Assembly: GCA_037834085.1 (NCBI GenBank)
Contig: JBBMKC010229415.1
Location: forward strand, 1 to 43,641
Length of the DNA: 43,641 nt
DNA from: Bipalium vagum
Lineage: Eukaryota
Direction: 5' to 3'
Within the stretch, counting starts at the first letter, position 1, and each line of letters starts with the position of its first letter. Under the pieces are notes generated by a model. That model did not search any database and was not told the origin of the DNA. It was given only the letters and a program-made list of their open reading frames with translations. The position numbers were made by a program, and so were the translations under genes. Of the stretch, positions 19,201 to 43,641 are shown in pieces.

Positions 19201-22200
19201 TGAGAACAAAATTGGAGTTAGTAGTCCTTCGGTTCCAACAATTATAAATTTTGAATTGAAGCTTGATGTTCCAGGGAAACCGGGAAAACCATATCTGGAA
19301 AAATCCATGGAAGGAATAATTCTCAAGTGGGACTCTCCTAAATATCTGGGAAAATCACCTTTCAGTGGTTACATTATAGAAAAGATTTCAGAATCTAACA
19401 AAGTATGGACAAGCATCAATAAGACATATTGTGAAGATCAGTATATACCAGTAACATTAGAAATCGGAAATAATGAATTATATCGCATAATCGCAGTGAA
19501 TACAGTTGGAAAAAGTGTTCCATCCGATATTTCCGATCTACCAAACTTAACGAAGTCTATTTCTTTCATCAGAGAATTGGAAAACATTCATATTAAAAAA
19601 TTACAATCGACTGCGATATTTGAATGTGAATTGAGTGAACCAGAATTATGTCTAACATGGCTTAAGAACGGAGTCCCTGTTTCAATGAGTCCTAAAATTC
19701 GATATAATATCAATCACAAAGTACACCAGCTTTGCATAAGCCATCTATCTGAATCAGATGAAGGAGTTTATTCCGCTTGCATTTCCAATATGTTATCCAA
19801 TGGTTGCTTAATTATTGAATGTTCTCCAGAATGGAATTTACCACCTGATTTCTCCGAACAGATAACCGTGAAATGTGGAAAGAACGTGTTTGTTGAATTA
19901 CCGTTTCTTTCTTGTCCAGCAGCTTCTGTCAATTGGTCTTTTAACGACGGACCCATTCATAGTAACAATATGAAAATCAAGATGGAACCAAATTACACAT
20001 CACTAAAAATTAATCAAGTAACTTCAACTCAAGCAGGAACGTATCTGTGTTTGCTGGAGAACGATTTTGGAAAATGTGAAATGAAAATCAATGTTACAGT
20101 CCTTGATAAACCTAGTCGACCTCAAAATGTGACATCAATAAAGAAGTCAGAAAATGAAATTTTGGTTAAATGGATGACACCATTGACTGATGGTGGGAAA
20201 CCAATTACAGGGTATGTTATAGAAAAACGAGAATCTGACAAACGAACATGGCAATATGTATCACCAGTGAATTCGGAACAGTTAGAATTGTCAATATCAA
20301 ATTTAAATCGCCAAGTACCATATTTCTTCCGAGTTATGGCTCAAAATGAAATCGGAATTAGCGAACCTGCTGAGACTGACAAATCCATTATTTTACCACC
20401 TAAAACAAGTCCTCCTTCAAAAATGAATCCACCGCTTATCCAATCTAAAGATAATGATACGTATCAAGTAAGCTGGATACATCCCTCTAGCACTGGTGGA
20501 TGTCCTCTTAAAGGATTTAAAATAATGAAATGTCATTTATCATCACCTAACAAATGGGTTGCTTTGACAGATGAGTTACTTCCACCAGATTCCACGAATT
20601 ATCTACTTGCTAATGTTTTACAAGAAGAACCATTTGCTTTGATAATAGCAGCCGTAAATGAAGAAGATTTAACTGGCCCTTTTAGTTCTAACAGTAATGT
20701 TATCAAGCCACAAAAACCTTTATCAATTCCATCGGCACCTACTTGTTTGAGAATTGAATCAGTAACAGAAAAGCTAATGACCATAAAGTGGGAAATACCA
20801 AAGTCCGACGGTGGATCGGCAATAACAAATTATGTTTTGCAATGGAACAATTGTGAATGTGACGAATGGATCAATGTTACATCAGATTTGATTTACAACC
20901 CAAAATACAACTGGAAATATCAACCCAGCAAATCTGACAATTACAAATTCCGTGTCTCTGCTGTCAATGGTATTGGAATGAGTGAATATTGCTATTTGGA
21001 AGAACCCTTCTCTGTGGAAAATTATTCAAGTCTGATTTTAAGTATCTCAAGATTCTTAACATCTTTTATATAGAACTCAATAAACCTGAAATAACTAAAC
21101 CATTAGAAGATATTAAAATCAATCCCAATAGTGCTTCGATGTTAACGTGTCAGTTTAAATTAGGAGAACCGGAAGCAACCATTACATGGTAAGTTTTTAG
21201 ATATTAATATTATTTAAAATTTCAATATAACATTTAACATTTTACTACATTAATATGTTCTTTCTTCAAGCATTTTAACTGATTTTATCAGAATATATTT
21301 TCTTTCAAATTAACTCTGAAGTATGAACCAACAGTTGTATCAGTTATATTATCCCTTTAGTTCTTTTAATTTATGTTTGATATTGACTTTTATTATTAAA
21401 TATTTAGTTTTTTCTTCATTTTTATATATAATTAAGTATTAATACATTATATTTAATAATATATAATAATAATAGTTTATTATAATGTAATATAGTTTAT
21501 TATCCAATTAAATTAAAACAATTTGCATTTAAATTTTATCAGTAGATTAATTCTATTTTTAATTAATTATTCCACAATGACATTGTACAAAATATCCCTG
21601 TTGAAGGGTATCAGCAATAAAATTAATTTATATAACATTTACAAAACAGGATGAAAGACAATAGAAACATTCGTGGATCAACCAAATTGAAAATAAATTC
21701 GGATAAACGTCACAGTACACTGTCGATAGAAAAGGGAAAATTAGAGGATGAAGGTCGTTACTCTTGTATATTAGAAAATATTCACGGAAAAGCTGAGACG
21801 ATTTGTTGCGTCAATTTTGAAGGCAAGTTTTACTTTGAGGAACATAATATTTAGGGAAAATATATTTTCTAGAAAAACCGGCTATTAAACTTGACTTGAA
21901 AATGTCGAAAGGTTTGCAAATCAATCAACACAAAAAAGCAGTGTTAACAGCAACAGTAACTGGCCATCCAAAGTGCGAAGTTATTTGGAAATTAAATGGC
22001 AAAAATATTGTTTATTCATCAAACATTCACTTTCAAGAAGTTTCGCCAAATTCATTCAGCTTGACAATTGATTCTGTAAACGTAAATGATTCTGGAGTCT
22101 ACGAAATTTTGGCTGAAAATTCATTGGGAAAATGTTCTGCATCCATTCCGTTAACAGTTTTAACAGTGCCACAACCTCCAGAAGTAGTACAGGCTATGTT

Positions 22201-25200
22201 AGAAATGTCTGACAGTGTTACCGTCAAATGGAAACCTTCTGTTCATGATGGAGGTTCGAAAATCACAAATTATATAGTGGAAAAACGTGAATTAACGAGC
22301 CAAAAACCAAACAATTGGGTCAAATGTGGAACTGTTACAGGAGATGGCAAAAATAAACTAAGTGTTTTCAATTTGACACCAGACGGAACATACAGTTTTC
22401 GAGTTGCAGCAGAAAATGAGATTGGCCAAAGTGAATTTTCTGAGATTGAAAAACCTCTTTCTCTTGAACAAGCTAAAGGTATTATTTATTTACTTTCGGG
22501 CTTTATTTGATTCCATTTTTTTAGATATTCCAACAGTTCCTGAAAACCTAGTGGTCAAGGATATTGGATTTAATAAAATTCAATTAAAGTTCAATCCATC
22601 TTCTGCTACAACTACACCTATCAGTTACCTAATAGAACAAAGAGATGATTTAACGAATATCTGGAAGCCTTCACTGCCATCCCAGACTAAGTCGACTATT
22701 GCAGATATTGGAGATTTAGACAATGATTGCAAATATCAATTTCGTGTGGCATCAAAGAATTCGAACGGTAAAAGTTTGCCTTCTTCTCCTACAGAATGGA
22801 TAACTCTTAAAAAAGGTAAAGATGTTTATAGATTATTTACTGATTGATTGAGTTTAGAAGCTAAAAAGACCGAAGAGAAACCAATAGTTCCCAATTATGT
22901 ACCACAAACACACGATTTGATAGATCAACTTAGAGAATACAAAAATATGATTAGTGAAACTAAGCCCACTGTATCAAGTTCGTATTTTTAGCACAGATTT
23001 TTATAATATTATTTTATAAATGCATAAATATTGGAGTTAAAAATTATTATTAATAATATTAAAATTATTAAATAGGCCCACCAGAAATATCTCTACTTGG
23101 ATCACCGGACTTTAAACTTCGACCTAATTCTAATATGAGAGTTCCTCTTATGATCTTGTCTGACGTTAGGCCAATTTTAGAAGTAGCTAAAATACCAGGA
23201 GCTCCAATCTCATCATCTAAATTGAAAATTGAGCAATATGGAAATAACTATTATGTCAATTTACTCAACGTCAATCTACAGTCGTCTGGAAAATATTTAA
23301 TTTCTGCTTCGAATAAAGCTGGACAAAACAGCGTATCAGTAGGTCTCTGCGTCACAGATGTTCCGAGCGAACCAGAAGGCTTGCTATTGGCAAATCAAAT
23401 ATCTCCTAACTCAGTGAAAGTTCAATGGAACCCACCTCGTGCAGATAATGGTGAACCGATCACTGAATATCTGTTGGAATACAAAGATGAAAAACGAAAT
23501 AGATTTTCAAAGCCAATTAAAGTCAATTCTAAGGAAACATCATGTATTGTTGAAGGTCTAGTTCCTGGTGTTCCATATAGATTTAGAGTTTGCGCTGTAA
23601 ATTCAGTTGGGCCAGGAGATTATCTAAATTCTAATGTTCCAACTATATTAAAAAGTGCTTACGGTAAGATTGAATCATTTTTATTTTACTTAGTCAAATA
23701 ATATAATAAATGTTAATCAGATTGTCCATCCAGTCCAGAAGGACCACTCAGTTACACAGTTCTTGACAATTCTTCACTCAATTTAGTTTGGAAAGAGCCA
23801 AAATCAGATGGAGGAAAACCTATCGAACATTATATTTTAGAAATTAAAGAAGTTGGTGGAAATAATGATTGGGCTCCTCTAGCACGACTTGGAAATAAAA
23901 ATCTTGAATATGATGTTTCCAATTTGAAAGATGGATACGCTTATAAATTTCGTGTCAAAGCTGTTAATGAAGAAGGTCCAAGTCCTTGGCTGGAAACAGA
24001 AAAATCTATTGCATTCAATGTACTCAAGAAAGTGCCTGGATTACCAGAAGGTCCAATTAAAATGCAATTACTACCGGAAAAAAAATTAAAACTATCTTGG
24101 TACTTACCTTTGGAAGATGGAGGATTGTTAATTGACCGATTTAATGTGGAAATGAAGTCCGATGACACTGAATGGAAAAATATAGGCATCTGTAGTCCAA
24201 ATGAACTTTCTTTAATTACTCCTGTTCTTGATTCCAATAAAATATACTCATTCAGAATTAATGCTCAGAACTCAATGGGACCGGGACAGTTCTTGTATTC
24301 TCAGCCATTTAATATCAGTACAAATCCTGGAGTTCTGTCTTCACCTGTGGGTCCTTTAATTGCTGTTTGTGATTCTCTTAACAGTATCCAATTGAAGTGG
24401 AATCCATCAATGAGTGGTAATCCAACAGAATATTATATTGAACATAGTTTGGATGGAACTAACTGGAAATACACAGGTCGCTCTTCGGCTTTAGAGCCAT
24501 GCTGCTATATTGCCAAAAATCTGAAACCTGGTCACGACTACTGGTTTAGAGTAACGGCTGAAAATAGTCAAGGAAGAAGTTCCCCATTAATGACAGATGA
24601 ACCAATAGCTTGTGTCAATCCGTACAGAACACCGAGCAAACCAAATGGACCTATTTGTTTCAGTAACTTGACTGATTCTTCAGTTGTACTATCCTGGAAA
24701 AATCCAGATGACAATGGAGACGCAATAATCTCACACTTTAATTGCTACATGCAATATAAAGATAGTCCAGCATTGCATAAAATCGGAAGAGTTCCTTATG
24801 GAACAAATTCAGTTCATGTTCCAAACTTAATTCAAGGAAAAATTTATAACTTCTATGTCTCGGCTGTAAATCAATATGGAGCTGGAGAATTATTGAAGTC
24901 TGACAATTTCACTTTAGAGGAAGTTAATTTTCCTCCGGATGCACCAGAATGGGTAAAGGTAATAAGTAAAGGAACCTCAACTGCTACAATCCAATGGGTA
25001 ATACCGAATGAATGTAAACATGGTCAAAAACATCTACACCATGTAGACAATTATCTAATTTATCAGAAAGAAGATAAGCCCGATTCCAAATGGATTTTAT
25101 TGTCAACTGTGGATCATTTTCTTGACAAAATAACTATCGGTAACCTCAGTCCAGATAAAAAATATTTCTTTGGAGTAGCCGGGAAAAATATGTTTGGAAT

Positions 25201-25495
25201 AGGTGATATTGTTTCAACAAAGGAATCTATTTCTCCTGAATCAGTAACAAGTGAGTTCATAGGTTTTTTCTCTTATTTCGAATTCTCAATTAATATTGTA
25301 TACTGAATTGACTATAAAATTTAAAAATCAATAATTAATCATTAAAACAAGTACATTAAAATATATAGAAATTTCTAACGAACAGATTTGTGTATAATAA
25401 GACAGAATTTCACCAAATATGATGAGTAAAGATTCATGGCAAACTTTAACTTCAATAAATCGGTCATATTTTATAATAATAATAATTAATAATAT

Positions 25496-25526
<31 letters not shown>

Positions 25527-28500
25527 TTTCAAAAAATTATAATTATGAATGCTTAGGTATTCTGTATAAAGCAGCCAAATTTTTTAATTAGGAAATTAAA
25601 AAAATTTTAATTAATAAAGAATTTTATTTCCTTTATTTTTATTCGCTAATATTATAAAAATATTATAACCAATAGAAATATAAAACGATAACTTAATGGT
25701 TTAATTTTTTATTATTTAATTTCACATATTCTAAATTTAATTATAAATGAATTCAAGTTAATTTGAAAATTTATTTTAGTATAACTAAATACGTATTCCG
25801 GGTTTCCGACAGTATTATGAATTAAAAATTATTAGTGACTTAAGGTTCAAAAATATTATTAAAGGTCCTAAAAAGTAATTTATATTTTCAAGGATTATTA
25901 TAAAATTCATTTCTTAAATTTTTATGGACAAATATTAAATTTTGACTTAGAAGAATTTTGTAATTTTCTCAAAATTAAAATTAAAATTAAAAAAAATTAA
26001 AATAATACCTTTAAATGCCTTTACTTTACCAATCTATTGATTTTTAAATATTAATAGCGTTCAAGACCATTTAATAACTCTTAATAATTTCTAAACCTAT
26101 ATGTTTTTAAAATTTCAGCCGTTCCGACAGCACCTCAAGGTCCTCTCAAAATAACTGATATCACCAAGGATAGCTGTGTATTATCATGGAATAAACCTCT
26201 GTATGATGGCGGTTCTCCAATTATTGCTTATCGAATTTATAAACGAGAACATTTTCGCACAAGTTGGCAAGAGATCGGAAAAATTCCAAATATTATCGGT
26301 CAAAATTTGGATTTTAAGGTTATGTATTTGTCAGAAGGAACGGACATTGACTTTAGAGTTGTTGCTGAAAATAAAAATGGATTCTCGGAACCATTAGAAA
26401 ATCAAGTTTTAATTAAACCTGTTAAACAATCAAATGTTCCTGGTCAACCTAGAGGGCCTATAAAAATAAAAGAACATAAGGATGGTACTGTTGCCATATC
26501 ATGGAAACCACCACTCGATGACGGTCTATCACCTATAACTGATTATGAAGTTGAATATAAAAAAAGAGGAAGGTGGTGGATGCCTTATACATCTACTGAT
26601 TCTCCCGAGGCGATATTCAATAATTTAAAACCAAACGAAGAATATTTTTTCAGATGTTTTGCTCGAAACGCTAATGGAATAAGTCAGCCGTTACATAGCG
26701 ATGAAAGTTATATTAATGTCAAGAAACCAGAGCCAATTAAGAATTTTAAAGTTATGGACGATAAATCTGGTAAAGGTCCAATCACATTATCTTGGAATGC
26801 TCCTGAAACAGAAAATGTGAAATCGTATAAAATAGAACAGAGAAATCTCAATTCACCTTTCGATGACTGGCAACCTATTGAGCTGGCTCTAAGACCAGAA
26901 CAGAAAGATAAATCAGAACCAATTAATTATGTCATTGATCGAATAAAGCCTGACACGTTTTATGATTTCCGGGTTTCGGCTGTATATCCCGATTCCGTTA
27001 GTGAATCTGTTAAGCTACCAAAACCAATTATGTTGACAGAAAAGACTCCGTTGAAACCTATAAGACATGTACACTTCAAACTTGATAAAGATCATGATCT
27101 TATTGATTTGACTTGGAGCTTACCAGATGATAGAACAGATACAAGGAAGAATGTAATAATTGAAGAAAAATGTAGTGATGATAATTTATGGAAACCACTA
27201 ATTGATCTACCTGATTCATTGAATACTTTCAGTATTTCTCGATCTGCATTAACAGATGATGTGCCCAGAGACCTTAAATTGACGATTTATGACCAAGATT
27301 CAAATATTAGGAGTTTACCTTATAAGATTAAACTACCTTCTCGAAATGACATCATGTTTGAAGGTTGTTCTCCTTACGGTTATGATGACTTACATTATGA
27401 CAGAAGACCGTTTAGGCTCACACCAATTGACAATACATATCGTGACATTCTAAGGCCTGAATTTGAGTATGATTCAATTCCAATTAATACTAACGAAATC
27501 AAATATGAAATACCATCTTTGTGGAAAGACGATGATTATGTATATGGATCCTTTGGAGATAAAAAACAGAAAAAATATTATCCAAAACCAATTAATGTTG
27601 AAGAAATACCCAGGAAAAGTCACAATCCATTAATTGTTAGGCCACTAACATCTGTAAGTCTAGAAGCTTCGTGGAATGATTATGTTCCACCATGTGAAGT
27701 TGATAAATTCAGAATTGAAAAGTGGAATCCTCTGTTGAAAAGATGGGAATATGAGGGTGAAGTCAGAGGAAATAAAACTAATTATATTTTACATGGCCTT
27801 AATGACGGAGTTCCAATGTGGATACGAGTAATTCCATTTGATAAGAAAGGAAAATCACTTCCAGTAATGTTAATGGATCATTCAGTAAGACCGCAAATAA
27901 AACTTTCTAAACCCTTAGCAGTGTCAGGTGTAAGAGTAGAGCCAGATGATTTGGGATTATTTGTAAGATGGTATAAACCAATGGATGACGGAGCGTCGCC
28001 AATTGACGGTTATAAAATTACGTTGATAGATTTAACTACAGGAGAAGAAACTAAAATTGCTACTATTGGATCTAACAGTAATCAGTGTATACTACCGAGA
28101 TTAAATCCTGAACATCAATGGATAGTGCAAGTAACACCATTTAATTCTGAAGGAGATGGACCAACGACTAAATCCTCTCCAATTTACATACCGGAAACTG
28201 AGACACAGCAGTCAATTGAACCCGTCAGACTTTATTTGTCCCAGAATATCAAACCTATTAAATTAAAATGGGATATGCCAAAAATATATCAATATCAACC
28301 AGACCAATCATTTTTCATTGAAAAATGGACATCCAAAATTAAAGACTGGGTACCCATTAGTCAGGTAAGTGGTAATTTATATGAATATGAACTTCCTGAT
28401 TTGGACATGTCCGTTGAAAATAAATTTAGAATTTATGCAAAAAATAACTATGGAATAAGTAATCCAGTTTATACGGATGTTATATATCCACATTCTTTAA

Positions 28501-31500
28501 GACCCATTCCAAAACCCGATATTCCAAGACTTGTATCTAATTTGAATAATCAAGAAGTGGATTTAGTGTGGAAATCTCCAAACCATGACGCTTTTATTGA
28601 TGAATTTTTGATTGAACGACAAATACCTTTAAAATCCAATGAATGGGAATATTTTGCAAGGGTACCCAGTCATACAACATCTTTCAATATAAAATCTCCT
28701 GTTGATGGTGCTAAATATAGGATTTTTTCAAAATATGATTATGGAACCAGTGAACCTGTTGAAGTTTTAAGCGAGCCAATTCATGATTATTACAGAAGAC
28801 CTCGGGAGTTTGAAGAACCTTTTACATTAGAATTATTTTCTCAACCAAAATCACGAAACTTGGAACCTAATATTTTAGAATTACATAGACCTACCTACAT
28901 ACCAGAAGACATGGATTATTATCAACTACAAATTCGTCAATCACCCAAGCAGGACTGGTATCCAATAAAGAATATTTCTCCTCATGAATTTTCATGTAGG
29001 CTAGACGAATATGAAGACTATTTGACTCCAGAAGCTTCTTGGCGTTTAAAACCAATCAGTAAAACAAATAAAGATTACTATGTTACACCTTCAAATATGG
29101 TTCTTTCGAGTCAAACAATTAAAGATATGCCATACATTTCTATTGAGGCCAAACCATCTTTTAGTTCAAGAGAAATTGATATTTATTGGAGTAAACCTAC
29201 AAAATCTAAGACAGATGTTATTCTATTTGAAAGAGAAAGTGATAGTCCCAACTGGGTTGAGATCAATAAATTTAGAGGTCCTGTTGAAAGAATTTCATTG
29301 ACTAATAGGCCGTCTGATAAAAAGTATTTCTATGGAGTTGCTGATGTTTATGGAGATCAAATAGGCAAAATATACAGTACTTTGGAACCAATATCAAGCT
29401 ATTATCAGCCAGAAATCGATTTCGAAACAGAGCGTCCATTAAAATTAGAAATGAGACATGAAAGTGAAAGAAAGCCTCTTGAAGTATTTTGGGATAGACC
29501 AGTTGATTTCAAGGATAATAGAAATAAATATTTTGTTGATGCATATTTACCTGAGAACAAATATTGGACAAGCATTGGGGAAATAATGCCCGGTATGTCA
29601 AGTTTTCAAATACCACTGGATATTTATAAGAAAGATGTCAAATTCCGGGTCATGAAATCTGAGGAAAATGGTAAATATCTCCCAATAAGTAATTATGTCA
29701 GTGTTCAGCCAGATATTTATAATGATGATGACATTGATTTGGAAGGCACTAGATTGCATTATATTAAAGATAGACATATTGTGGATGAATACACGGCACC
29801 ATATTACGAAAATCCATTTATGAAAGTCGATATTCCAAGGAACATATTTAGTACGCCAAATTTTATCAGACCTTCAGGAGACATGAATTTAGTCTTGGAT
29901 ACCTATCAAAAGCCATATGACAGCAGTTACGAATTTCAAATTCCAAAAGATTATGACACTATTCCAGTTTTGAGTCAAATAAATAAATTTAATCAATACA
30001 TTTCTCCTTTAGCACCAGTTGGTCCTTTACAAATATTACCGTATGAGGATTCTAAGCTCCAATTGATATGGCAGCCTCCTACTTATTCTTCTCCATCAAA
30101 ATCACTAATACCAACTTCATATGTAATAGAATCGAGACCACTAGATTCCAGTGATTTTTGGACTTTCCAAACTGAGACTGGTCCCTATACATATCATGCC
30201 ATCATTCCTAGTTCTCAAATTGATTCACATTATCGAATCAGATCAAAAGTAGGAGATTTGTTTAGTGCACCTCTTTCTGAAATCTATACACCTAATTCAA
30301 CTCCCAATAGAGATTATTGTGATTTCAAATACGTTCCACCAAGATTAAATCTGGAATTCATACCAAATCTTAAAGCCATTGAACTTGACTTACTCCCTCT
30401 TAGAAGTAAAGAAAATGTCGTTGATTATATAGTTCAAACCAAGTCTAATGTTTCACCACATTGGAGTACGATCGACATCATACCCAAAGATATTCCTAAA
30501 TATGTTTACCATGACATAGAACCTGAAGCGATTTATCAATTTCAGCTTATTCCCAGATTTACAACTAATACTCTTTCGGATATATCAATTCCAAGCAACT
30601 ATATAAGCATTCCATCATATAAATTGAAAACTGAATTGATAAGTTTACCTCAAAGAATAAAGACAAACGTCTTTGATAAAACTTTAATTGATGAATGGAT
30701 TCCTGAGCTGCGTAAATGGGAACCTTTAGTTCGTGATAGTATAAGTAGGCCAAAACTTGAAAGTGACATTTCTTCTATTCCAACACATTACCGAGTTAGA
30801 AGTGCCGAGATTCCAGACAAAGTTGAAAGATATTACTCAAAATCTCTCAAAGAAAGTAAGTGAATTAAAAATTTCTACTTTTTACATTTATTTTATTAAA
30901 CTAATTAATTATTTTTATTTCACTTTTGTTCAGCTCTTATTTTTTATTCTTTTATGAAATATAAAATTTTATTTCACAAAATATATTTTTATCAAGTTCC
31001 TCAAAAATAAATTAATTAAAATTTTTTAATTATATTTTTACGAATAATTGCATAAAAAAATATTAAAATTAATTATTTTTTTATTGAAAATCAAAAATAT
31101 TTTTTAATTTATCTGCGTAATTATTTATTATTATGAATAATTACAATTGCCATGGAAAATTTTTAATATTTTGTCACCAGAGTACTCAAGTTTGAATAAT
31201 GTTTCTTCTGTAAGAATACTTTATTTTATTATTCCAGTAACTCAAAGACTCTTCTACATTTTGAACTATTTTTGTCATTTAACAATGGACTCGAACTGAT
31301 TTTTGTTAATTACCACTATTTTGCCAGGTAAATACAAACCAATAGCCCCGTTGTCTTTCACTGCCAACAGAGAGCCGCTAAACGGAAATGTTACATTCAA
31401 CATCATTCCTTCTATTTCACATAGTTCCGATATCGGAGAGCCAACCAGTTATCTCATTGAATATCGTCCTATCAATGAGAAATATTGGAAATATTTAACA

Positions 31501-34500
31501 GAAACAGATTCTACAAATTACAGATTGCTTCACACCGGTCTAAAGCCTGACATGAAGTACGATTTTAGAATATTCAGTCAGAATAGATTGGGTAAAAGTT
31601 CACCTGTGGAAACATCTTTGTCGACTGAATTCTACAAATCAGGTAAGTCTCAATGAAACATTAAATGATTTTATTTGTCCTTTAGGTTTAATTCATAAAA
31701 AGATCCCTGAAGATTCTATCTATATGGAGCCATTTTTATGTGATAGCTATAAAATAAAATGGGAAGGTCTAGATGATGACAGAGTTTCTGGATATCGAAT
31801 TGAGAATCTTGAAATGGACAGAGACACGCAATGGAAATTACTTGACACAGTTCCATCATATCAGTGCAATTATTTTATTGATAACTTACGACCGTCTTCA
31901 GATTATAGATTTCGTGTAACTCCTATTTTTGACGATTTAATAGGCGTACCAACAGTTTATCCAAGATCATTAAAGTTACAGACGACTGTTCCGTATAAAC
32001 AACCATGTATTGATTTTGTTAAATTTGATGAGTCTCCATTGGGATCAATGAATTTGTCTTGGAAGCTTAATCAATCCGATTCATTGGTATTACCAACTAA
32101 CGATTTTGAATATTTGATAGACGTAAAATATCCTGATGAAAACCGGTGGAAAAATATTGGTCGTTCGTTTGATACTTGTTACGAGATACCAAAGGTATAT
32201 GAAGGACGAAGTATCACTCCAACCGACATAAGAATAACACCTAGAAGAAGAAACGATTATTTTGAATCATATGTAACTAGAATTCCTGAAGACACTTTCT
32301 TGACCCACAGACGTCAATTATCTCCAATTCCTAGTGAATTTTCTTTTTCAAAAATATCTCCTACGTCTCTGATTTTTAATTGGAAACCGTATGAAATAGA
32401 TTATAAGCGATTTGGGCCGGACTATTATCTAATTGAAAGTAAAATAGCAGATAATCCGCTATGGACACCGATTGGGAGAGTTGAATACTCCAAACATTAT
32501 TTTCCTATTAACAATTTAATACCGACTATCGATTACGAATTTCGAATAAGTTGTCCAACAAGATATAACCTATCACCAAGGGATGACCTACCAATAATTA
32601 ATGAATATTCATATATTTCGGTTCCGAAAATTCAACTTCTGGAAACGATTGATCTCGTACCACCAGCTAGTTTTAGTTCCAAGTTCACACCTGGTGGACT
32701 ACTGTTAAAATGGAGTCCAGAAAATTGGAAGGATGGTGTTCGGTATATTGTTGAACGAAAGGAAACGGGGCTATCAAATCAAAAATGGTATCCGGTCACA
32801 AATTTTCTGATTGATGATTTCCAGCTGTTTTTGCCTAATATCAAGGATAATCAGTATGATTTTAGAATAACTGCTTTAAATAATAACAAGGAAAGAAGTA
32901 TTCCCAAATACTTAGATCAAGTGGAAAGACAATCATACGAGCCATTGTGTAAAATTAAAAGAAAACCTTTGGAAGAAATTATAAAATTCAATGAAAATGA
33001 TTTTGTAACAAGGATCGGAGAGGATGCTATATTTAAAGTATTTTTCGATAAGGATGAAGATCTCACGATCCATTGGTTACATAATGGAATAACAGTTTAT
33101 CCCAATGCTAAGTATCAAATAATCAACAATCTTGATCATCATATTTTGCGGATATGCAATTTATCAATATTTGACCAAGGAGTGATATCTTGTAGAATTA
33201 TAAATAATTTTGGCTATGTAACAAAGCACTGTAACTTGATTGTGGAAACCATTCCAATGTTTATTCGAAAGCATGCAATACCTTCAGATTACAGAGCCTT
33301 GGAAAGAGAAACATTTACTATAAAATTACCCATAATCTATTCATTGAGACCGGCCATAGAAATTTATAAGGATGACAGTCTTTTAGTTAGAGGATTGAAA
33401 TACGGCTGGGAAATCGTTAATTATTATCTTCTTCTTACCATATCCAATGTTACTCATGAAGACGATGGCTATTACAAAATAAAGATCTACAATGGTCTTG
33501 GATATGATTATTTCTTCTTTTCTCTTAATATTAAAGGAAAACCCAGGCAACCTCTCCGATCACCTATAGTTATGGAAAGAGATTATGTGATTTTGATTGA
33601 CTGGGACTATGTGTACCCTGATTCGATAACTCACTATGAAATCGAATACCGACATGAATTTGAAGAGTGGATCAGAATTGGAAGATCTTTGACCAACAGA
33701 TTCGTCTCGAATATTTTTTCAAATTTGTTTACCAATGTTGGCTGTTATCAATTCCGATATCGGGCAGCTAACGAATATGGAGTCAGTGAACCAAGTCCTG
33801 TTTCTAGTGATTTGATTATCTGTACTCGAACGACCAGAGGTGAATATTATTGATTATTTCAATATTGAAAATCTACTTTAAAATAAACATCTTCATTATA
33901 AAATATCTTTTAGCTAATGATTGAATTAAAACTATTTTATATTATAGAAAATTATCCTATAGACATTGACTGGTTAAATAAGACTCGACTCTATGATGAT
34001 TTCGAAAAAGAATATGAGATTCTGGAGATTCTGTCAAGGTATGTTTAACAAATATTAAAAATTGTTTCTATAGTCCAGTTCAGCTTACCGGACTCCACCG
34101 TCTACCGTGCCAGAGACAGGGTTACTGGTGAATATATAATGACAGAAATATTCGATAATCGAAAAATCATTGAAAATGATATTTACTTAAAATCGAGAAA
34201 GCAATCTGAAAAAATAATTCAGAAAAAGTTTGAAGATCAATCGAAAATCATAGATCTCTCAGATAAACCTCTTGTTAGAAGTTCAGATTATATATTCGAC
34301 TCAAGCTTACTGGAAAAGAAATTCACAGGATTATATACTCCTGAAAAGATTTATAAATCGGAAAGTAAATCCGCATTTATTTTTCCAAGGTAAGTCTGAT
34401 ATTTATATTATTTTTATTGATTACAAATTATCCGTGTTGTATTTTCACATTTGCTAATATATAATCTATTTTTTTATTGGTTAAAAAATATTAAAATTCT

Positions 34501-37500
34501 CCATTGTTTTCCGTTGTTAAGAATATTTTTATATTTACTAATAATTTAATTATTTATTTTTATTTTTTTATTAATGGGTAATTTCAAATATTTTTATTGC
34601 TTTCATTTTACCTTTCTTTATTTTAAATTTTTTCACAAATAAATTCTTCAAGTGTTGCATGTCTCAAATTTCGAGTTTTACTTTTTAATGTCTTAAAATT
34701 AATGCTGCTATAGTTTCAGTGGACAAAGTCTATATGAGCCGTTAATTCACCGAATTAAAATATCTGAAAGAAAAGCTGCTGTGATCACTGAACAGATTCT
34801 GAACACCCTCAAAGGCTTACATTCAGAAGGTATAGTTCATTTAGGAATCGAAGTAGGATTTTGTCTTTAATTTGTGCTTTTCTTTACGGTTGATTTTCTA
34901 GCCAAAAAATATTTATTTTTCACCGTCTGATGATAAATGTTTCACATTGCTGCCTTCTCCCTTCATGCAGAGATTACCGTCGGGGAAATCAGAAAATGTG
35001 AAATTAGATCTTAGCTATATGAGGTATATTCCTCCGGAAATCGTGTCTAAGACTCCTGTGAGTCAAGCAACTGATCTTTGGTCTTTGGGAATGATGATAT
35101 ATGAATTGTATTGTTTTTTTAAAATATTTACTGATTTATATGAATGTTAATATTATAGATTCAGTTTCGATGAAATTACCAATAAATCCATGAAGATTGA
35201 AGAGTACAGACCAGATTTTTCAAAAATGAAAAACTATAGTGCCGAATTGGTCGATTTCACTAAAAAATTGTTATCAACAAAACCAGAAGACAGACCATCT
35301 CTTTCCATGGCCCTAGAACATCCATGGATAAAATCATTATCAAAATATGAAACCAATCGGTCAGATATCCAATATGAAATGTCACCCTCCAAATACGAAC
35401 TTGAATCGAAAGATTTTACGGATCGTTTCCTGCATATCCTGGGAATGAGATCAATCGATTTTTCAACCAAAAAGTATTATCGTGATTCAATCTCAAAGGA
35501 AAAAATGTGTGATGATATTTTACTCAAATCTCATTTAAGAAGACCTGAAATTTTGTCTCGTTTAACCAACATTTTTGCTCTCAGTGGTACGAAAGTCGTT
35601 CTCCGTTGTTATTATGACACTTTCAAGTCCATAAACTATCGTGTACGCTGGTCATGTAACAATAGTGAGATCAACGAACGAATTTCTTCGAAATATTCCA
35701 TAGATAATTCAACTTGTGGATATAGTAAATTAGAGATTTTGTGCGTTGATGAAGAAACAAGCGGAATTTATACAGTGAAAGTGATGACTGAGGCCGGTTC
35801 CGTTTTTGATTCTTGCCAGGTGATTATAAAAGGTGAGAAATTTAAATTCCTCAGACTTCCACCTTAACATTTTTCAATATTAGCTTCACCTATTACTACC
35901 AAGTCTTCATATAAACAAAATCAAATTTTGCCCAATATCTCTGGATTGGAACCGAAAATAATTCTTCCGCTGATCAATACTGCTTCGTTGAGCAACAGGC
36001 ATATTTCTCTAACTGCAAAAGGTTGGAGAGTTCAGATATCTTCAAGATAGTCTACTAACTCTTTTTTAATTTCAGTCTCCGGAATACCAAAACCATACAT
36101 AACATGGAAACATGATGGAATTGTTATCAATCCATTGGCAAAAGATCGATATTCAATGACGGAGGAAAATTTGTATGTCACTTTACATATAAATAATTGT
36201 ACTATCAAAGAAAGTGGAATTTATACTTTGGAAATATCAAATCAAAACGGTTTCGATTCGTGTTCTGCAACCTTAACAATAACAGGTATTTTTATGCAGT
36301 ATACAAAGGCTGTATGAGAAATCAGTTCATGTCATTTAGTTTTATTTGCTTCCGGTTAGTATATATACTTCCGGCACTAGTTTTAATTGCAATAGAAATC
36401 GGTTTTCAAATAACTAAGAATTGTAAAAAGAAGTAAAAAAAATATACTTTCTCTTAAACTTAAAAGATAAATTTTCAAAATGTATACAATATTTTTTGAA
36501 ACATTTTTTACGATTAATTAAATTATTAAAAATTACTTTGATAAATTAAAAGTTAACTTGTCTAGATATCACTTTCATATTAATAATTTATCATTTATTT
36601 TTACATTAAAAAGTGATTTTTATAATATTAAATTAAATAAATAAATTTAAAAATTGTTTATATTGAGAATCGATTGGTTAAAATATTGCACAGATTATAG
36701 GCTTTATTCCATATGAGTTTTTTCTTTTAAGTAGAAAAAAGACGTAAATTAAAATTATAATTTTATTTATTTATTCTGTCAGATTCATCAATTTGTGACA
36801 CAGATTAATAACCAAATAATTTAGATCAATCCCTTGATTCTTTTTGTGTACCACCAAGGTTTGAGAGATTGCTTAATTCGACAACGGTGATTATTGGAGA
36901 TGAAATTAATTTACAAGTTCGAATCACTGGGGTTCCGAAGCCCGAAATTCAATGGGTATACAACAGAGATAAAATCTTTAAAAATGGTCTTCATTCTACA
37001 TATGATGAGATAACCGGAACATGGTCATGCATAATAAAAACTAATTTCATAGGAGATGATGTGGTGACCATAGGATGCATTGCAAAGAATAGTGTAGGAA
37101 CGGCTTTTACGGAAACTGAAGTATTTAAATCATCAGGTTTTGGTTTGATTGTAAAGTAGGAATTTTTAAACAAGTTTTTCTTCAGATTTCTCAATTAAAC
37201 ACAGCAGACTGATCACTGATGATGGTATAATCAAACATTCAACTAAACATTTGCCAGAATTTGTCAGAATCTTACGAGATCGCCAATGCAGAATTGGAAC
37301 AACCTTATCACTATTTTGCTCTGCTATTGGTACCCCTGAAGTAGACATTTGTTGGTTTAGAGATAATACAAAAATCGATGGATCTCATCAAATCAAGTAC
37401 TCAATGAGAGTAAGTGTTGAACAATTTTTACTTCCTTGTATAATTATGATTCTGGATATCTGAAAAACATCTACAGATTCGAATTTTTAATCACATCAAA

Positions 37501-38944
37501 AAAAGTGTTCAAACTTTTCCGTTAATAAATGAAAACAAAATGGAAATTATATTTGACATTTTATTTAAACTGTCTTTCTAGATAACATTACAAATATTGT
37601 ATTACTTTTTCAAAATACCGATCCTAAGTATGAACTGCTCATATAAATTAATATTTTATTATTTTCTTTATTATTAATCCATGTATCTTTAATGTGAAGA
37701 CAAAGCAAACTATCAGGCATTATATTTGGAATTATACTAACGACTTAAAATATTGAATGATCAATGAATCGAATTACATTTAATCGTTATCACAATGATT
37801 ATCATTAAAAAGCGAAGACTGAACATAAAACTTTTTTTTAGAATTGTAGTGGAAGCGCTCAACTCATCATAACAAATATGGATTCCACAGACTTCGGAAC
37901 GTATACTGCTACCGCTTTTAACTGTATTGGTCGGGCTTCCACATCATGTAATGTTACGGAAATTAAGGATCTAAATATCCAACCACCAAAGATTTTGAAA
38001 GGGTTGTCAAATCTGAAAATTAGTGAAGGGCGGTCGGTTGAATTGAAAGTTGAAGTAATCGCTAGTCCATCTGTTGTATTTAAATGGTTTGTGTTAATTG
38101 GGGATTATTGAATAACTATTGACGGAATTTTTTTTGTGTAGGGAGAAGGATGGTATTGATATTAACTTGAAGCTCGAATTATCACATATTGATATATCTA
38201 ATTTTGAAAATATTTGCTGTTTGAAACTTAAAAAATCCAGTAAAAGTGACGAAGGTTTATATCGGTGCACTGCGAGCAACAAATTCGGGCACATTTCTAC
38301 TTCGGCCTTTATTTGGATAGATGAAAATGTTAGCCATAAATTTATTGAAAAAGTGTTTCACACGGATCAACAGTCTCTTATGAATCTTGAAACTAGTGAA
38401 ATGAAGCGCTCGTCGTTAGTCGAGAAAACTGTTACAGATTCAAATGAAGATTTCTTAGAAATTATCGAATGTTCTCCACAGACTTTGGAAGTTTTAGAAG
38501 GCGACGAGATTGTTTTGTGGTGCAAAGTCGAAGGAAATTCACGAATAATGGGTTTGGTTTTCATCTGATATTCTGTAAAATATTAATTTTTTCCTGTCTC
38601 CAGTGGAATGGTGTAAAGGAAGTCGAACATTGGTCTACGATGCACGTCACCGAATAACTCAGCTAGACAACCTTTATCAAATGTCAATAGCTAAGTCGAT
38701 GCTTACAGATTCTGGAAAATACACTTTAACCCTAAAGTCCGGATCCAAAACGGTCACTATGGTTTGTCGAGTTGAAATTTTATATAAAGTGAAATCTTCA
38801 AGAAAAACAAAGTATTTTTGCATACATATTGAAAGAGTTTCCATTACCTTGAATTTTTTCAGTTCTGAACAAATGTCTTCTCGTGAATCCTCTTATGTTT
38901 CCAATGACAGTTTCAGATCGCGATCGAGGTCCAAATTGTTATGA
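544..38944 (+). CDS. Giant titin/twitchin-family muscle protein (about 36 Ig, about 38 Fn3, acidic repetitive segment, C-terminal pseudokinase); 5'-partial, at least 9,935 aa
   Basis: Phase-consistent exons: 544-702, 746-1014, 1077-1237, 1853-1922, 1972-2336, 2391-2508, 2553-2640, 2688-2820, 2870-2974, 4224-4579, 4624-4753, 4805-4933, 4979-5346, 5446-5575, 5626-5749, 5799-8375, 9526-9755, 9806-14791 (contains the N gap), 14838-15003, 15054-15626, 16038-16397, 16448-16717, 16768-17997, 18049-18324, 18369-21029, 21074-21188, 21650-21822, 21873-22478, 22525-22815, 22858-22977, 23076-23663, 23721-25250, 26119-30855, 31328-31642, 31686-33839, 33948-34038, 34084-34389, 34714-34852, 34902-35107, 35159-35832, 35884-36021, 36076-36285, 36825-37136, 37186-37409, 37842-38086, 38142-38551, 38604-38811, 38863-38944 (TGA). 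I-set Ig motifs (PxF..L, GxPxPxIxWxK, DxGxYxCxAxNxxG) and Fn3 motifs (WxxPxxDGGSxIxxY, YxFRVxAxNxxG) recur throughout. The first exon follows an AG at 542-543, so the start codon lies outside the window. Confidence 0.93.
3069..3911 (-). mobile_element. Degenerate, internally deleted mariner-family transposon in intron 9
   Basis: Minus-strand fragments YWFKKNLSAID..., VTNWFSQFRMGRSVFHDLLRPGR (helix-turn-helix region), LVPHTL (WVPHEL-like) and, after a frameshift, ATDDETWVYF (TGDETW motif). Termini TA|CAGATG (3067-3074) and CATCTG|TA (3906-3913). Confidence 0.85.
10271..14680 (+). repeat. Glu/Ile/Lys-rich low-complexity repetitive coding segment (PEVK-equivalent position)
   Basis: No Ig or Fn3 motifs. 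Recurring EKxxEIxxxEQxEIxEE unit; EEIIIEE(L/M)EDQF at 11464, 12187 and 12670; a 549-nt period around the gap. Confidence 0.85.
13246..13345. other. Assembly gap (100 N) inside a coding tandem repeat
   Basis: Run of 100 N. The joined flanks read GAAATG|AATGTTATG, identical to the intact copy at 13889-13903. Confidence 0.97.
16448..22815 (+). repeat. Ig-Ig-Fn3-Fn3-Fn3 super-repeat: 3 full copies plus Ig-Ig-Fn3-Fn3
   Basis: Ig pairs start near 16448, 18049, 19555 and 21080. Fn3 starts: DKPSKP/RVPDAP/KPGVPG; DVPGPV/NAPDQP/DVPGKP; DKPSRP/SPPSKM/SIPSAP; TVPQPP/DIPTVP. Confidence 0.85.
21823..21872 (+). other. GC-AG intron (50 nt)
   Basis: Donor GAAG|GCAAGT in phase 1 joins to AG|AA AAA CCG to give NFEEKPAI. 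The nearby GT at 21827 is phase 2 and leads to TAA with either downstream AG. Confidence 0.8.
23355..32950 (+). other. Uninterrupted array of about 25 Fn3 domains, divergent in the distal half
   Basis: Successive P..P.GP / W..P / Y.FRV.A.N..G units with no intervening Ig. Distal copies keep only the Trp/Tyr cores. Confidence 0.8.
25474..25526. repeat. Imperfect (AAT)n microsatellite in an intron
   Basis: taataataataattaataatataataattaataataataataataataataat. Confidence 0.8.
34013..35330 (+). other. Titin/twitchin-type kinase-fold domain, predicted catalytically dead
   Basis: Spliced over 5 exons: YEILEILSSLPDSTVYRARDRVTGEYIMTEIF...SGQSLYEPL...EQILNTLKGLHSEGIVHLGIEPKNIYF...FTLLPSPFMQRL...YIPPEIV...ATDLWSLGMMIYEL...DFTKKLL...RPSLSMALEHPWI. 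Confidence 0.9.
35540..38790 (+). other. Six post-kinase (M-band-like) Ig domains
   Basis: Domain starts RPEILSRL, EPKIILPL, PPRFERLL, LPEFVRIL, PPKILKGL and LEIIECSP, each with the core Trp and mostly a (D/E/T)xGxY motif. Confidence 0.85.
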
Positions 38945-38999: not shown

Positions 39000-39005
39000 A
39001 ATAAA
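39000..39005 (+). terminator. Probable polyadenylation signal of the titin-like gene
   Basis: AATAAA 55 nt after the TGA. The region is AT-rich, so a chance match is possible. Confidence 0.5.
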
Positions 39006-40769: not shown

Positions 40770-41161
40770 ATGCCATCTTTTTGTTGTTTTCCTCAAAATT
40801 TAACTCTATTCCCCTTATACCTGCAGTATAAATTTAACATCCTATTAGAAGCGAATTTTGATAATCATGTTCGATGCAGTTAGCTTAAAATGGTAGCTCT
40901 TGGGTATCCTCGCTGTGCCATATCTTCACACAAATTAAAACATGTTCTTGTGTCACCTGTTATCACAACTTGCCTAAGTCCTTGGTGATCTATTTTAAAA
41001 ATTTTCTGGTGCTTTCACTTCCTTTCTTTCAATACAGCATCCCCTTTTTTTGAGACAGTTCTTTCTACTATCCTTAACGGTACTCGCATTATATTACATA
41101 TTTCTGTAAGTCTCTTATAACCTTTTTGAATAAAATTTGAAATGTCTTCATTTTGGACCAT
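40770..41161 (-). pseudogene. Tc1-family transposase N-terminal DNA-binding region, multiple stops
   Basis: MVQNEDISNFIQKGYKRLTEICNIMRVPLRIVERTV...ERK*KHQKIFKIDHQGLRQVV...TCFNLCEDMAQRGYPRATILS*LHRT*L...YKGNRVKF* follows the Tc1 HTH-GRPxK-HTH-HKxxRLxF pattern. Confidence 0.7.
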
Positions 41162-41932
41162 TAATCTAAGAAGATTATCAAAAATAATTTTCATTATAAG
41201 GTTAAATTATTGTATTATTAAAAGTATCTTACCTAATGTTTAAAATAACTACAAAGTATTTAAAATACAAATACATTTTTTATCAAACCACCATTTATTT
41301 GGACAATTATATTATTACCTTCCGACTTTTTCATCTAATCATTACAAATATTAACAAAATTCATAAAATTTAAGCTCATCTTAAATATAATTAAAGCACA
41401 TTGAGAAAAAAAATACACAAAAAACTATTTTTAATCAAATCTACTAAAACAAAAATCGAATATAATTGCAAACATTAATACAAAAACAGTTATTTAGTAC
41501 ATATAGGTATAGGTTATAAAATACATATAAGACTTTTAATAAGTAACACAAAAATCCTATGTACTTTACAACTTTATTATATTATTAATATTTGTTATTA
41601 GACTGTACATTGAATCTCATCTCATCTACACTAGTAACATTCATTCTGCTTAAATATCAGAATTCTTGATTTAATTTTTTGTAAAATTAATTCTTAAAAT
41701 TGATTTTTAAAGTTTTAGTTTACTGAATTACATGTTATAACTATAGATAGTTTATACATAATGAAAATGTGTAAATATTAATGTCCAATAATTGACAGAG
41801 GTATTGATTGAGTCGTACTTTTTTCGCAACACCTAGATGGTGATTATATTTTAATATAGTTCCGTTCGATTATCAGATATATAGTTTTTAAAATACAAAA
41901 TATTTAAAACATGAAATCGATAATAAATTATA

Positions 41933-42629
41933 TTATTTCTTAAATTTAAATCGCTTCTTCAGCCCTTTTTGGTGCTTTCTTTTACACTAAATTAAAAATT
42001 TATGAAAGATATAATCTTATGGTTTTTACCTTTGACTTTTGTCGCTTTCTAAAATGGTCATCGTTTTTATCCTAAGAATGAAGAATTGAAAGAATTAAAT
42101 ATCAAAAGAAAAACTTCATCGTTGAGTAATCTCATTATTTCTTCTCCTTCAACCTCCGGGTCAATATAATGTCCAAGGGCTAATTTCTTTTCAAGCTTTT
42201 TCTGTTTTTTACTTAGAACTTGTCTGGTAAAAGTACTTTCTTCATACTCCTCTCTCTCCTTAATTTTTTTAATAGCCAAGCAATTGGCCGTTTTGTCTAT
42301 CTGAAATGATCATTAAACTTAAATATAAAAAGTTTAAATTTTATTTAACTTTCTCCTCTTTAGGTAAATCATCATCACTATTAGAAATATCAGAATCATC
42401 TTTTAAATCTTCTAGTATATGTTCTATTTTTGAGATGTTAATATGCTTTCTTTTCTTTGCCTTTTCTTCCCTGTCTGAAAAGAAAAATATAATTATTAAA
42501 ATTTAATGCCATTGTTTATTATTAACCATAAAATACTTGATTAAGGCCAGTTGGCTTATAAATATCATTTTGGTTGCTTTCAAAATTTTCAATATGCTGA
42601 TCTAAATCAAGGCCAGCTTCTTTAGGTAA
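41933..42629 (-). CDS. NGDN: Neuroguidin (NGDN/Lcp5)-like SSU processome factor; 5' end unresolved
   Basis: Exons 42629-42527, 42474-42350, 42300-42115, 42071-42030 and 41986-41933 (TAA), with GT-AG introns of 43-52 nt. Translation ...IYKPTGLNQVFYDREEKAKKRK...ILEDLKDD...DDLPKEE...KEREEYEESTFTRQVLSKKQKK...KRKHQKGLKKRFKFKK* matches the NGDN motif order YxPPxLxxVxYD / ELKExYSDAPEE / RxxYEExxxxRLxxSKxxK / basic tail. Confidence 0.75.
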
Positions 42630-43641
42630 CTATATTTAAAATTATAATTTTAAGGAGATAACCATATAACTTACTAAAAAGTTCATAATAAATAATTTCA
42701 AATATTTAAACAAACATTTCCTGAGATTGTCATTACGAATTAAAATATGATTATTATTTATAATTATTTTTGAATATTTTTAAGAGAAAATTTAATATTG
42801 AAAATAATTGAATGATTCTAAATTTTCAAAGTTTGAAGTTGTGTTATTCATCAATTTTTCTATATGTAAATTTGAAATCGATTAAAATTTATTTACTAAA
42901 ATTAATAACTTTTACAAATGATTTCAATTTTAGAAACAGTAAAAATTTTATGGTTATTGATTACATAAACAGTAGAGCTTAAAAATAACATAAAATTAAA
43001 ACCTGGTTAAATAAAATTAATTTTTAAAAATTTTTAAATACGTTAATTTAATTAAAAATTTGAACTTTTATGAACCTGGGAGATGTAGTTTTAGTTACAT
43101 TCAATTTTCTATTTAAAAATTTAAATTACATTTTGCCGATAGCAAATCCTGAAACCGAAATATTATTTTTCAATTCACTACAATTAAACAATTGACATTT
43201 TATTGTCAATCAAACCAGCATAGTTTTTTACTTCGCACCTCGTATGATTTTTTTTAATCTCTGTGACTTATTCTTTCGTATTTGTAGTGTTAATTATGAA
43301 GATGCCGATCTTGAAGTTTCGTCGATTTTTAAACTAATCTTCGCGCTTTTCGATTTTTCCAATCATTCTTGATAACCTATCGATGGTTTTTAAACGGTTC
43401 AACAGTTAACAACTCAGACGTTGTTGTGAGACGTTTTGTTCTGAAGTTAATGGTACCCTCTTTCAGAATGTTGTTGAGGTTCGCTCCAATCTCTTAATTT
43501 TTATAAATAAACTTTTGGCGAAAAATAAGGTTTTGTTAATACGTTGGCCAATTTAAAATCATGTATTTTAATTATTAATTATTAATTTAAAATTAATTAA
43601 ATAAATTTTGAAAAATAAATTTTAAATATTATTTAGGAACA

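Follow-up and report, generated by a model that had tools for sequence, protein, structure and literature searches.

A titin-like pseudokinase stripped of nearly all catalytic residues in a giant flatworm gene

Introduction

What can a titin-like kinase domain do once the residues required for catalysis are gone? It has long been disputed whether titin kinase signals through catalysis or serves as a scaffold, since the vertebrate domain deviates only mildly from a canonical kinase. A dichotomy was proposed in which invertebrate titin-like kinases are active and the vertebrate ones are pseudokinases (PMC4042850). The locus studied here lies on a contig of the flatworm Bipalium vagum (JBBMKC010229415.1, assembly GCA_037834085.1), which we analysed over its full 43,641 nucleotides (the window). 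An earlier note on this DNA described a titin-type kinase with every catalytic motif erased, inactivated far more completely than titin.

Results

The window contains one giant gene on the forward strand (559–38944), encoding about 36 Ig domains, 33 Fn3 domains, a Glu-rich segment and a single kinase. The domains were counted with our own Ig and Fn3 profiles, where 45 Ig pieces were reduced to about 36 domains by joining intron-split halves by eye. Nearly all long forward-strand frames have Pfam I-set or fn3 matches, and eight other frames (six on the minus strand, two on the plus strand) have no Pfam match. The first Ig match is at 559, close to where the contig starts, and this position marks a domain match rather than a located gene start. 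The last in-frame stop is at about 38944, with AATAAA near 39000.

The gene opens with an I-band-like tandem array of about 17 Ig domains (559–10266), followed by a low-complexity segment of about 1,450 residues with roughly 20% Glu (10267–14689, including 100 N at 13246–13345), which is likely an elastic spring. A mixed region (16139–23353) repeats the order Ig-Ig-Fn3-Fn3-Fn3 three times and leads to 20 or more consecutive Fn3 domains (23390–32884), several of them degenerate. The super-repeats of titin differ from this pattern. The Ig-Ig-Fn3 block upstream of the kinase (32999–33796) is arranged like titin A168-A170 and matches PDB 2nzi (residues 38-286, E 1.5e-12). Six Ig domains follow the kinase (35544–38779, by Pfam and our profiles); the gene ends after them and contains no second kinase. 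The locus thus has the layout of a titin-like sarcomeric kinase: a giant Ig/Fn3 protein with an MLCK/CAMK-type kinase close to its C-terminus, Ig-Ig-Fn3 before the kinase and Ig after it.

The kinase domain (34013–35330, forward strand) is predicted to be spliced from five exons. Its 283 residues form an open frame with no stops, as the earlier note had read it. A phase 1 intron of 108 nt (33840–33947) precedes the exon encoding a short N-terminal linker with an NYP motif (33950–33958) and strand β1 (33948–34038). Intron 1 (34039–34083; 45 nt, phase 2) falls within the Gly loop. The next exon (34084–34389) comprises the degraded Gly loop, β2, β3 (MTE, 34139–34147), a charged insert, αC and β4–5, and is separated by intron 2 at the hinge (34390–34713; 324 nt, phase 2) from the exon for αD, αE and the start of the catalytic loop, HLGIE (34714–34852), in which Gly replaces the catalytic Asp at 34844–34846. 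Intron 3 interrupts the catalytic loop (34853–34901; 49 nt, phase 0), which continues with PKN in an exon that also encodes PSP in place of DFG (34953–34961), PPE (35031–35039) and helix F (34902–35107). Beyond intron 4 (35108–35158; 51 nt, phase 2), which contains an in-frame stop, the last kinase exon (35159–35832) holds the kinase end, a conserved C-terminal tail and the first post-kinase Ig domain (35544–35831). All four introns are GT-AG, and each is identical in codon and phase to an intron of the canonical twitchin kinase found in the same assembly (L052, G000:C159038).

Three of the four kinase exons that were scanned match Pfam Pkinase (E 1e-4 for 34714–34852, 5.6e-8 for 34902–35107 and 8.6e-6 for a third), and the N-lobe exon has no Pfam match. 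The local alignment score with the canonical twitchin kinase is 199, while 500 shuffles give a mean of 33 and a maximum of 54; the resemblance is not due to chance. Together with the fold residues described below, these matches uphold the proposed titin-type kinase fold. HxDxK, DFG and GxGxxG are absent from every frame between 33000 and 36000, which speaks against alternative splicing that would restore these motifs. Thirteen in-frame GT-AG pairs inside the N-lobe exon are candidate cryptic introns, and all were scored against an orthologue profile. A cut at 34121–34222 would yield a near-canonical N-lobe length, but the 11 cuts touching β2–β3 all lower the profile score, to 115–120 bits from 132. 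The two downstream ones (34228–34278 and 34281–34328) score about the same as the uncut exon; they may be real, and they restore no motif.

The spliced domain retains one of 11 catalytic or ATP-binding residues compared with all ten fold residues. Every motif reads as first reported: SSLPDS in the Gly loop, MTE at β3, HLGIE/PKN in the catalytic loop (split by intron 3), PSP for DFG and PPE for APE, with TDLWSLG and HPWI present. The β3 Lys, catalytic Asp and DFG Asp are all lost while the fold residues persist, which is the sequence definition of a pseudokinase. The statement that every catalytic motif is erased stands as a near-total loss but goes slightly too far, since the catalytic loop still has its His and its Asn (PKA N171), and the structural Pro-Glu survives in PPE. 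Compared with canonical kinases, the N-lobe is longer by about 33 residues, with 123 residues from β3 to the catalytic His as opposed to 88–92. This agrees in length with the charged insert of about 35 residues placed after β3 in the earlier note, but the alignments gave differing registers and the site of the extra residues is ambiguous. An 8-residue deletion after helix F is a further change, beyond those first described.

Because the catalytic Asp, the Mg-binding Asp and the β3 Lys are all missing, established kinase chemistry predicts that the domain almost certainly lacks phosphotransfer. ATP binding is probably absent as well, because the Gly loop is free of glycines, the phosphate-binding positions are acidic (Lys72 and Lys168 are both replaced by Glu), and a bulky Met at PKA position 70 and Tyr at 173 would crowd the adenine pocket. 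Met at the Ala of AxK is the titin M34 change, which was argued to occlude the adenine pocket (PMC4042850), and degraded Gly loops occur in 41 of 49 human pseudokinases (PMC2639636). An aromatic residue at 173 is not diagnostic, since Solemya PK1 also has one and retains all 11 catalytic residues.

Six relatives, from two flukes, two monogeneans and two others, carry the same signature of lost kinase motifs. Mapping the loss across taxa, as had been suggested, recovers the Asp-to-Gly change, PPE and the loss of DFG in all of them. Common to all six are Gly for Asp166, Gly for the DFG Asp, Pro for the APE Ala, Phe at 173 and a clade-specific pattern in the activation segment. Their αF–αG region is short (44 residues; 51 in B. 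vagum and 56–60 in canonical kinases). The N-lobe insert and the loss of Gly50 and Gly55 are found in 5/5 relatives with N-lobe data, and the inserts vary in sequence and length. The same five retain the β3 Lys (Lys72) and Glu91, whereas the B. vagum copy has lost the β3 Lys. Most of the inactivation is old and shared across flatworms, which refines the view of a far more complete inactivation than in titin. Among the sequences compared, only the loss of the β3 Lys, the Pro in DFG and the likely loss of the αC Glu are peculiar to the B. vagum lineage.

In the tree, the B. vagum copy and the six relatives form one clade (100/99), recovered in 100% of 200 bootstrap trees; the twitchins lie in a separate clade. 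The tree left out P0001 and P0033 (both partial), near-duplicate cluster members and most distant kinases, and included no vertebrate titin or C. elegans TTN-1; its backbone is unresolved, as is any sister relation to titin or TTN-1-type kinases. The B. vagum kinase has a long branch (1.84), an unusual composition and at best 34% identity to its orthologues, and its placement could be aided by long-branch attraction given that branch and composition. By their scores, the flanking Ig/Fn3 blocks resemble those of flukes no more than those of other family members, and the scores are too low to fix orthology. An AU test did not reject a grouping of the pseudokinase clade with flatworm twitchins (p 0.29), and the domain may be either a titin/TTN-1 orthologue or an old twitchin duplicate.

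The fluke proteins are arranged as Ig-Ig-Fn3-kinase followed by five to six Ig, and the Dicrocoelium protein also has Fn3 domains upstream. The source of Clonorchis P0057 calls it unc-89, a name that its architecture does not support. The structural model of a relative, not of the B. vagum protein, has a full kinase fold (mean pLDDT 72) with a disordered insert, and best matches titin (6ygn, E 3e-30) and twitchin (3uto, E 1e-29). Word-based homologue searches with two exons of the window returned 0 of 1125 and 0 of 1563 candidates, and the ESM Atlas gave no usable match.

The elements flanking the kinase are conserved unevenly. In the close relative P0001, 36 of 57 residues at the kinase end and 25 of the first 38 tail residues are identical, as are 60/99 in the next Ig and 8/30 in the linker, pointing to strong protein-level conservation of the kinase end. 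The tail is likely the αR1 part of the CRD: these 38 residues resemble twitchin helix R1 by eye, although the modelled tail helix of the relative has a pLDDT below 50. NYP was taken to stand in place of the titin NYD linker. The motif is present and plausibly equivalent, but it has no Asp and lies 20 residues before the kinase, compared with 27 in Macrostomum twitchin. The B. vagum copy thus lacks the YD motif of the N-terminal linker, a family feature (PMC12862963); YD or FD occurs in the linkers of both flukes and not at that place in P0060/P0061. This weakens the case for a conserved linker clamp, not for a titin-like family origin. No R-7x-R motif is evident in the C-terminal tail. Since both motifs are missing, titin-style tail mechanosensing may be partly lost.

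Vertebrate titin kinase (PDB 1tki, 4jnw, 6ygn) shares with the flatworm domain the order Ig-Ig-Fn3-linker-kinase-tail-Ig, the Met at the AxK Ala and the status of a pseudokinase. In both cases the host protein is giant and combines tandem Ig domains, Ig/Fn3 repeats and a Glu-rich segment. Titin kinase is also the best kinase match for the last kinase exon and the best fold match for a relative. It retains, however, GxGxxG, the β3 Lys, the catalytic Asp and EFG (PMC2639636), all lost in the flatworm domain, where neither YD nor R-7x-R is seen either. Twitchin and projectin (PDB 3uto, 1koa, 1kob) have a similar Ig-Ig-Fn3-kinase-Ig x5 end and are the top PDB matches for the profile of the pseudokinase clade, but twitchins are active and canonical (10/10 fold and 11/11 catalytic residues), form a separate clade and carry Ig-Fn3-Fn3 repeats (P0049). 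Nor does the gene itself fit a twitchin orthologue: the assembly contains a separate canonical twitchin kinase (L052) that groups with Macrostomum twitchin (100/97), and the repeat pattern differs. One copy of the pseudokinase was found in the assembly. More than one cox1 type occurs in the assembly, and L052 has a higher GC3 (0.42, against 0.21–0.33); this twitchin may thus come from a second flatworm.

Trichinella P0026, a TTN-1-type titin judging by its architecture rather than its source name, likewise has a tandem Fn3 run and then Ig-Ig-Fn3-kinase-Ig x5, with a slightly best flanking-domain score to the flatworm gene (195, compared with 172 for twitchin). Its kinase, in contrast, is canonical with 11/11 catalytic residues, and TTN-1 kinases are described as active (PMC4042850, PMC12862963). 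The closest precedent, which the earlier note did not name, is the PK1 domain of arthropod obscurin. PK1 of obscurin/UNC-89 in arthropods and nematodes is a pseudokinase of a sarcomeric giant protein with Gly for the catalytic Asp (e.g. Gryllus P0039); unlike the flatworm domain, it has kept AxK, DFG and the Gly loop, and it is an ATP-binding domain with PK2 as its partner. Obscurin/UNC-89 identity is ruled out for the flatworm gene, which has one kinase, 33 Fn3 compared with at most two Fn3 matches in the obscurins compared, and an end after six Ig. An obscurin PK2-like query against the assembly recovered only generic CAMK-type kinases. VRK3-type pseudokinases resemble the flatworm domain in the degraded Gly loop, the absence of the catalytic Asp and the DFG Asp, an adenine pocket predicted to hold bulky side chains, and retained fold residues, but belong to an unrelated kinase group. 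VRK3 also keeps Lys72-Glu91, and its failure to bind nucleotide was measured, whereas that of the flatworm domain is predicted.

Discussion

On this sequence evidence, the flatworm titin-like C-terminal kinase domain is likely to be an ATP-independent scaffold or mechanical module, not an enzyme. Most of the decay would have taken place once, in a flatworm ancestor, with further decay in the B. vagum lineage. By analogy to vertebrate titin, the protein would span from the thick filament to an elastic region. On the same analogy, the kinase fold, the adjoining Ig-Ig-Fn3 domains and the C-terminal tail could together form a stretch-sensitive docking surface, phosphorylation being left to twitchin. 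The loss of catalysis is likely independent of the vertebrate inactivation because the substitutions differ and active relatives lie in between, an argument made beside a tree without vertebrate titin kinase.

An unlikely alternative is a folded spacer that keeps the chain stable and of the right length, takes no part in signalling or docking, and has a drifting N-lobe. The missing Pfam match of the N-lobe exon, the several alignment registers, the long branch, the lack of YD and R-7x-R and the variable inserts of the orthologues are all in line with this. A mere spacer does not readily account for a kinase end and tail as conserved as Ig in P0001 next to a linker that is not, for the activation-segment pattern in six relatives, or for the persistence of the domain in flukes, monogeneans and the B. 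vagum lineage.

It is improbable that the domain is instead a nucleotide-binding allosteric pseudokinase like obscurin PK1, which would bind ATP without metal and regulate an active kinase, such as twitchin, in trans. Arthropod PK1 binds ATP despite Gly for the catalytic Asp, with a Kd of about 62 µM in the fly, where it interacts with PK2 (PMC10129394), and Lys72 and Glu91 in the five orthologues would fit such a role. However, none of the GxGxxG, AxK and DFG motifs of PK1 is present in the flatworm domain, which has Glu at 72 and 168, and the gene has no second kinase. An erroneous gene model, alternative splicing or pseudogene decay is a highly improbable source of the dead motifs: the junctions are predicted and the N-lobe exon offers cryptic introns, but the twitchin intron positions, the motif-free frames, the lower scores of the β2–β3 cuts, the stop-free long exons, the six further Ig downstream, the changes shared with relatives and the one copy in the assembly all speak against it.

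A titin-like domain that is flatworm-wide, implausible as a catalyst and conserved beside an active twitchin breaks the proposed dichotomy (PMC4042850). Pseudokinases in sarcomeric giants are already known, and the flatworm case extends that kind. In these animals, where RNAi is feasible, it provides an unambiguous natural test of function without catalysis. The domain appears to have been missed by curated flatworm kinomes, and our literature searches showed no description of a flatworm titin-like pseudokinase.

More tentatively, flatworms could have a genuine counterpart of titin, built of tandem Ig, a Glu-rich spring, Ig/Fn3 repeats, the kinase and terminal Igs; its kinase would have been inactivated independently of the vertebrate one and far more thoroughly. 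If so, flatworms would be the cleanest model for the scaffold function of titin kinase, with no possible phosphotransfer. Catalysis would then have been lost repeatedly and convergently in giant muscle kinases, and non-catalytic mechanosensing would be their ancestral essential job. The idea of repeated loss draws on the acanthocephalan twitchin-like kinases, which are also decaying: two of the three have 4/11 catalytic residues left.

Catalytic residues and fold

Splicing of the 34013-35330 region (+ strand) by script, with removal of four GT-AG introns of 45, 324, 49 and 51 nt, yields an open frame encoding a 283-residue kinase. It aligns to a canonical twitchin kinase with a score of 199 (shuffles 33 +/- 5). 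Of the four kinase exons scanned in the window, Pfam Pkinase matches all but the N-lobe exon. Direct reading and splicing confirm the motif readings of the earlier note. With both position sets picked from general kinase knowledge after the sequence had been seen, only one of 11 catalytic and ATP-binding positions is canonical (Asn171, PKA numbering) and all ten fold positions are kept (Val57, His164, Pro169, Pro207, Glu208, Asp220, Trp222, Gly225, Arg280 and the final Trp). The loss is near-total (10/11), but the original wording that every catalytic motif is erased slightly overstates it: Asn171 persists, as does the Pro-Glu pair of APE. The αC Glu position is Gln or Asp, depending on the family alignment used. 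The N-lobe is ~33 residues longer than canonical (the earlier note put the charged insert at ~35), and the placement of the extra residues is ambiguous. The KII tripeptide occurs three times in the insert (34160-34260), which suggests that it may have arisen by local duplication.

Splice junctions

All four introns of the domain agree in codon and phase with introns of a canonical twitchin kinase on a different contig of the same assembly (L052, G000:C159038:1-5347, minus strand), which provides strong, indirect support for the predicted junctions. L052 also encodes the tail and two Ig domains. Its kinase has a fifth intron that the window gene lacks, and a 2.1-kb intron in L052 carries an apparent mariner-type transposon remnant, recognised by eye.

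HxDxK, DFG and GxGxxG are absent from every frame on both strands of 33000-36000. The N-lobe exon contains 13 in-frame GT-AG pairs, 11 of which touch β2-β3; removing any of these lowers the orthologue-profile score from 132 to 115-120 bits. The other two, further downstream, are neutral in score and restore nothing.

Conservation among flatworms

A search with the last kinase exon (35159..35832) against 1.84 billion representatives gave 46 matches and revealed the same kind of decay in Dicrocoelium and Protopolystoma. A close relative, P0001, is 58% identical over 224 residues and covers this exon only. Scoring 7984 candidates of 533-2000 residues with a profile of these relatives and three window exons gave 25 matches; with those from Clonorchis and Cichlidogyrus and two further proteins, the decayed relatives number six.

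Mapped across relatives, as the earlier note proposed, the motif loss recurs: all six share the Asp166 to Gly replacement, Gly184, Pro206, Phe173 and a shortened αF-αG region. All five relatives with N-lobe data have an insert before αC and a bulky residue at 70, lack Gly50 and Gly55 (Gly52 is lost in 4/5), and retain Lys72 and Glu91. Judged from these sequences, the ancestor of these flatworms already carried most of the decay, and the window's lineage went on to lose the β3 Lys, since the six relatives share the decay yet 5/5 with N-lobe data keep Lys72.

In a 26-row tree, the domain and the six relatives form one clade (100/99) apart from twitchins, with the domain on a long branch and a backbone without resolution. 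An AU test does not reject a duplicated twitchin as the source of the clade (p 0.29). The Trichinella protein P0026 is closer to the window gene in architecture and differs in its canonical kinase.

PMC4042850 describes invertebrate titin-like kinases as active and vertebrate ones as pseudokinases. In the literature searched, in which subscription journals are thinly covered, a titin-like pseudokinase of flatworms is not described; supplementary alignments of titin-kinase papers might include such sequences. In the supplements of two kinome papers (PMC3117856 and PMC12837073), the S. mansoni table has two MLCKs, with no substitutions flagged in either, and the F. hepatica table three. Two fluke signature strings have no exact match in the latter table, which is weak evidence and assumes presence of the gene in Fasciola. 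Pseudokinases of this general kind are already known, and the flatworm protein is a variant. As a sequence feature, the conserved flatworm titin-like pseudokinase is real and well supported; its function and origin we infer.

Decay is also seen in acanthocephalan twitchin-like giants, which keep 4/11 (P0011, Pomphorhynchus), 8/11 and 4/11 (P0021 and P0030, Neoechinorhynchus) catalytic residues. These group with twitchins in the tree and were probably inactivated separately from the flatworm kinase; no report of this decay was found in the literature searched. The mollusc obscurin-like P0063 (Solemya) reverses the arthropod obscurin pattern: its PK1 is canonical and its PK2 keeps only 5/11 catalytic residues.

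Gene architecture

Nearly all of the window, a whole contig, is occupied by a single + strand gene, roughly estimated to encode 10,000 residues within the window. Pfam and Ig/Fn3 profiles indicate ~17 tandem Ig domains and a Glu-rich stretch of ~1,450 residues. After these come an Ig-Ig-Fn3-Fn3-Fn3 unit in three copies and a tandem run of at least 20 Fn3; an Ig-Ig-Fn3 block then leads into the kinase, and six Ig domains follow it before the gene ends near 38944. The Ig-Ig-Fn3 block before the kinase matches titin 2nzi along its length, and the best kinase match of the last kinase exon is titin kinase, by small margins. Obscurin/UNC-89 identity is argued against because no second kinase was found in the gene.

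The threefold unit (16456-21000) differs from the Ig-Fn3-Fn3 pattern of twitchin P0049. Within the Glu-rich region (13238-14000), a segment is apparently duplicated: one peptide occurs ahead of a 100-N gap and again near 13870-13960, and a collapsed repeat may lie within the gap. On the minus strand at 40850-42700, several short open frames containing runs of basic and of acidic residues suggest a small spliced gene; the one frame tested had no Pfam match.

ATP binding and putative function

On established chemistry, the residues present almost certainly exclude catalysis. ATP binding is unlikely because the Gly-loop glycines are missing, Glu replaces Lys at positions 72 and 168, and Met occupies position 70 and Tyr position 173, the last presumably equivalent to VRK3 Phe313. 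Met at 70 is the titin M34 change (PMC4042850). Prediction of nucleotide binding from sequence is fallible (PMC4718504).

The folding model is of the relative P0060, made with a 16-sequence alignment. It shows the kinase fold in full (mean pLDDT 72), a disordered insert and a long αC. Its best structure matches, titin 6ygn and twitchin 3uto, are helped by shared flanking domains.

Identity to P0001 is as high at the end of the kinase (36/57) and in the tail (25/38) as in the next Ig (60/99), and low in the linker between tail and Ig (8/30), a pattern that indicates purifying selection acting on both fold and tail. The titin A168-kinase region is described as recruiting MuRF1. By analogy with titin, the likeliest role would be a conformation-sensitive docking surface. 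Neither the YD linker motif nor the R-7x-R tail motif described for titin-style kinases (PMC12862963) was found here, which counts against a full titin-style mechanism.

Composition of the assembly

Searches of the assembly found a single twitchin-type exon and a single copy of the decayed kinase. The twitchin groups with that of Macrostomum (100/97), and GC3 is 0.42 in its contig versus 0.21-0.33 in the window gene. Four loci (L047-L050) comprise at least three types of cox1, with 74-79% pairwise identity, plus nuclear copies, one 92% identical to L048. In L047 (clearly, five AAA sites) and L048 (more weakly), AAA codes for Asn, AGR for Ser and TGA for Trp, as in rhabditophoran flatworms and echinoderms; a third type uses the ordinary invertebrate code. 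A flatworm is the probable source, but the third cox1 type and the GC3 difference mark the assembly as mixed; its mitochondria comprise two that are flatworm-like and one from another invertebrate. Many single-exon CAMK-like kinases of 300-370 aa on other contigs suggest a lineage-specific expansion.
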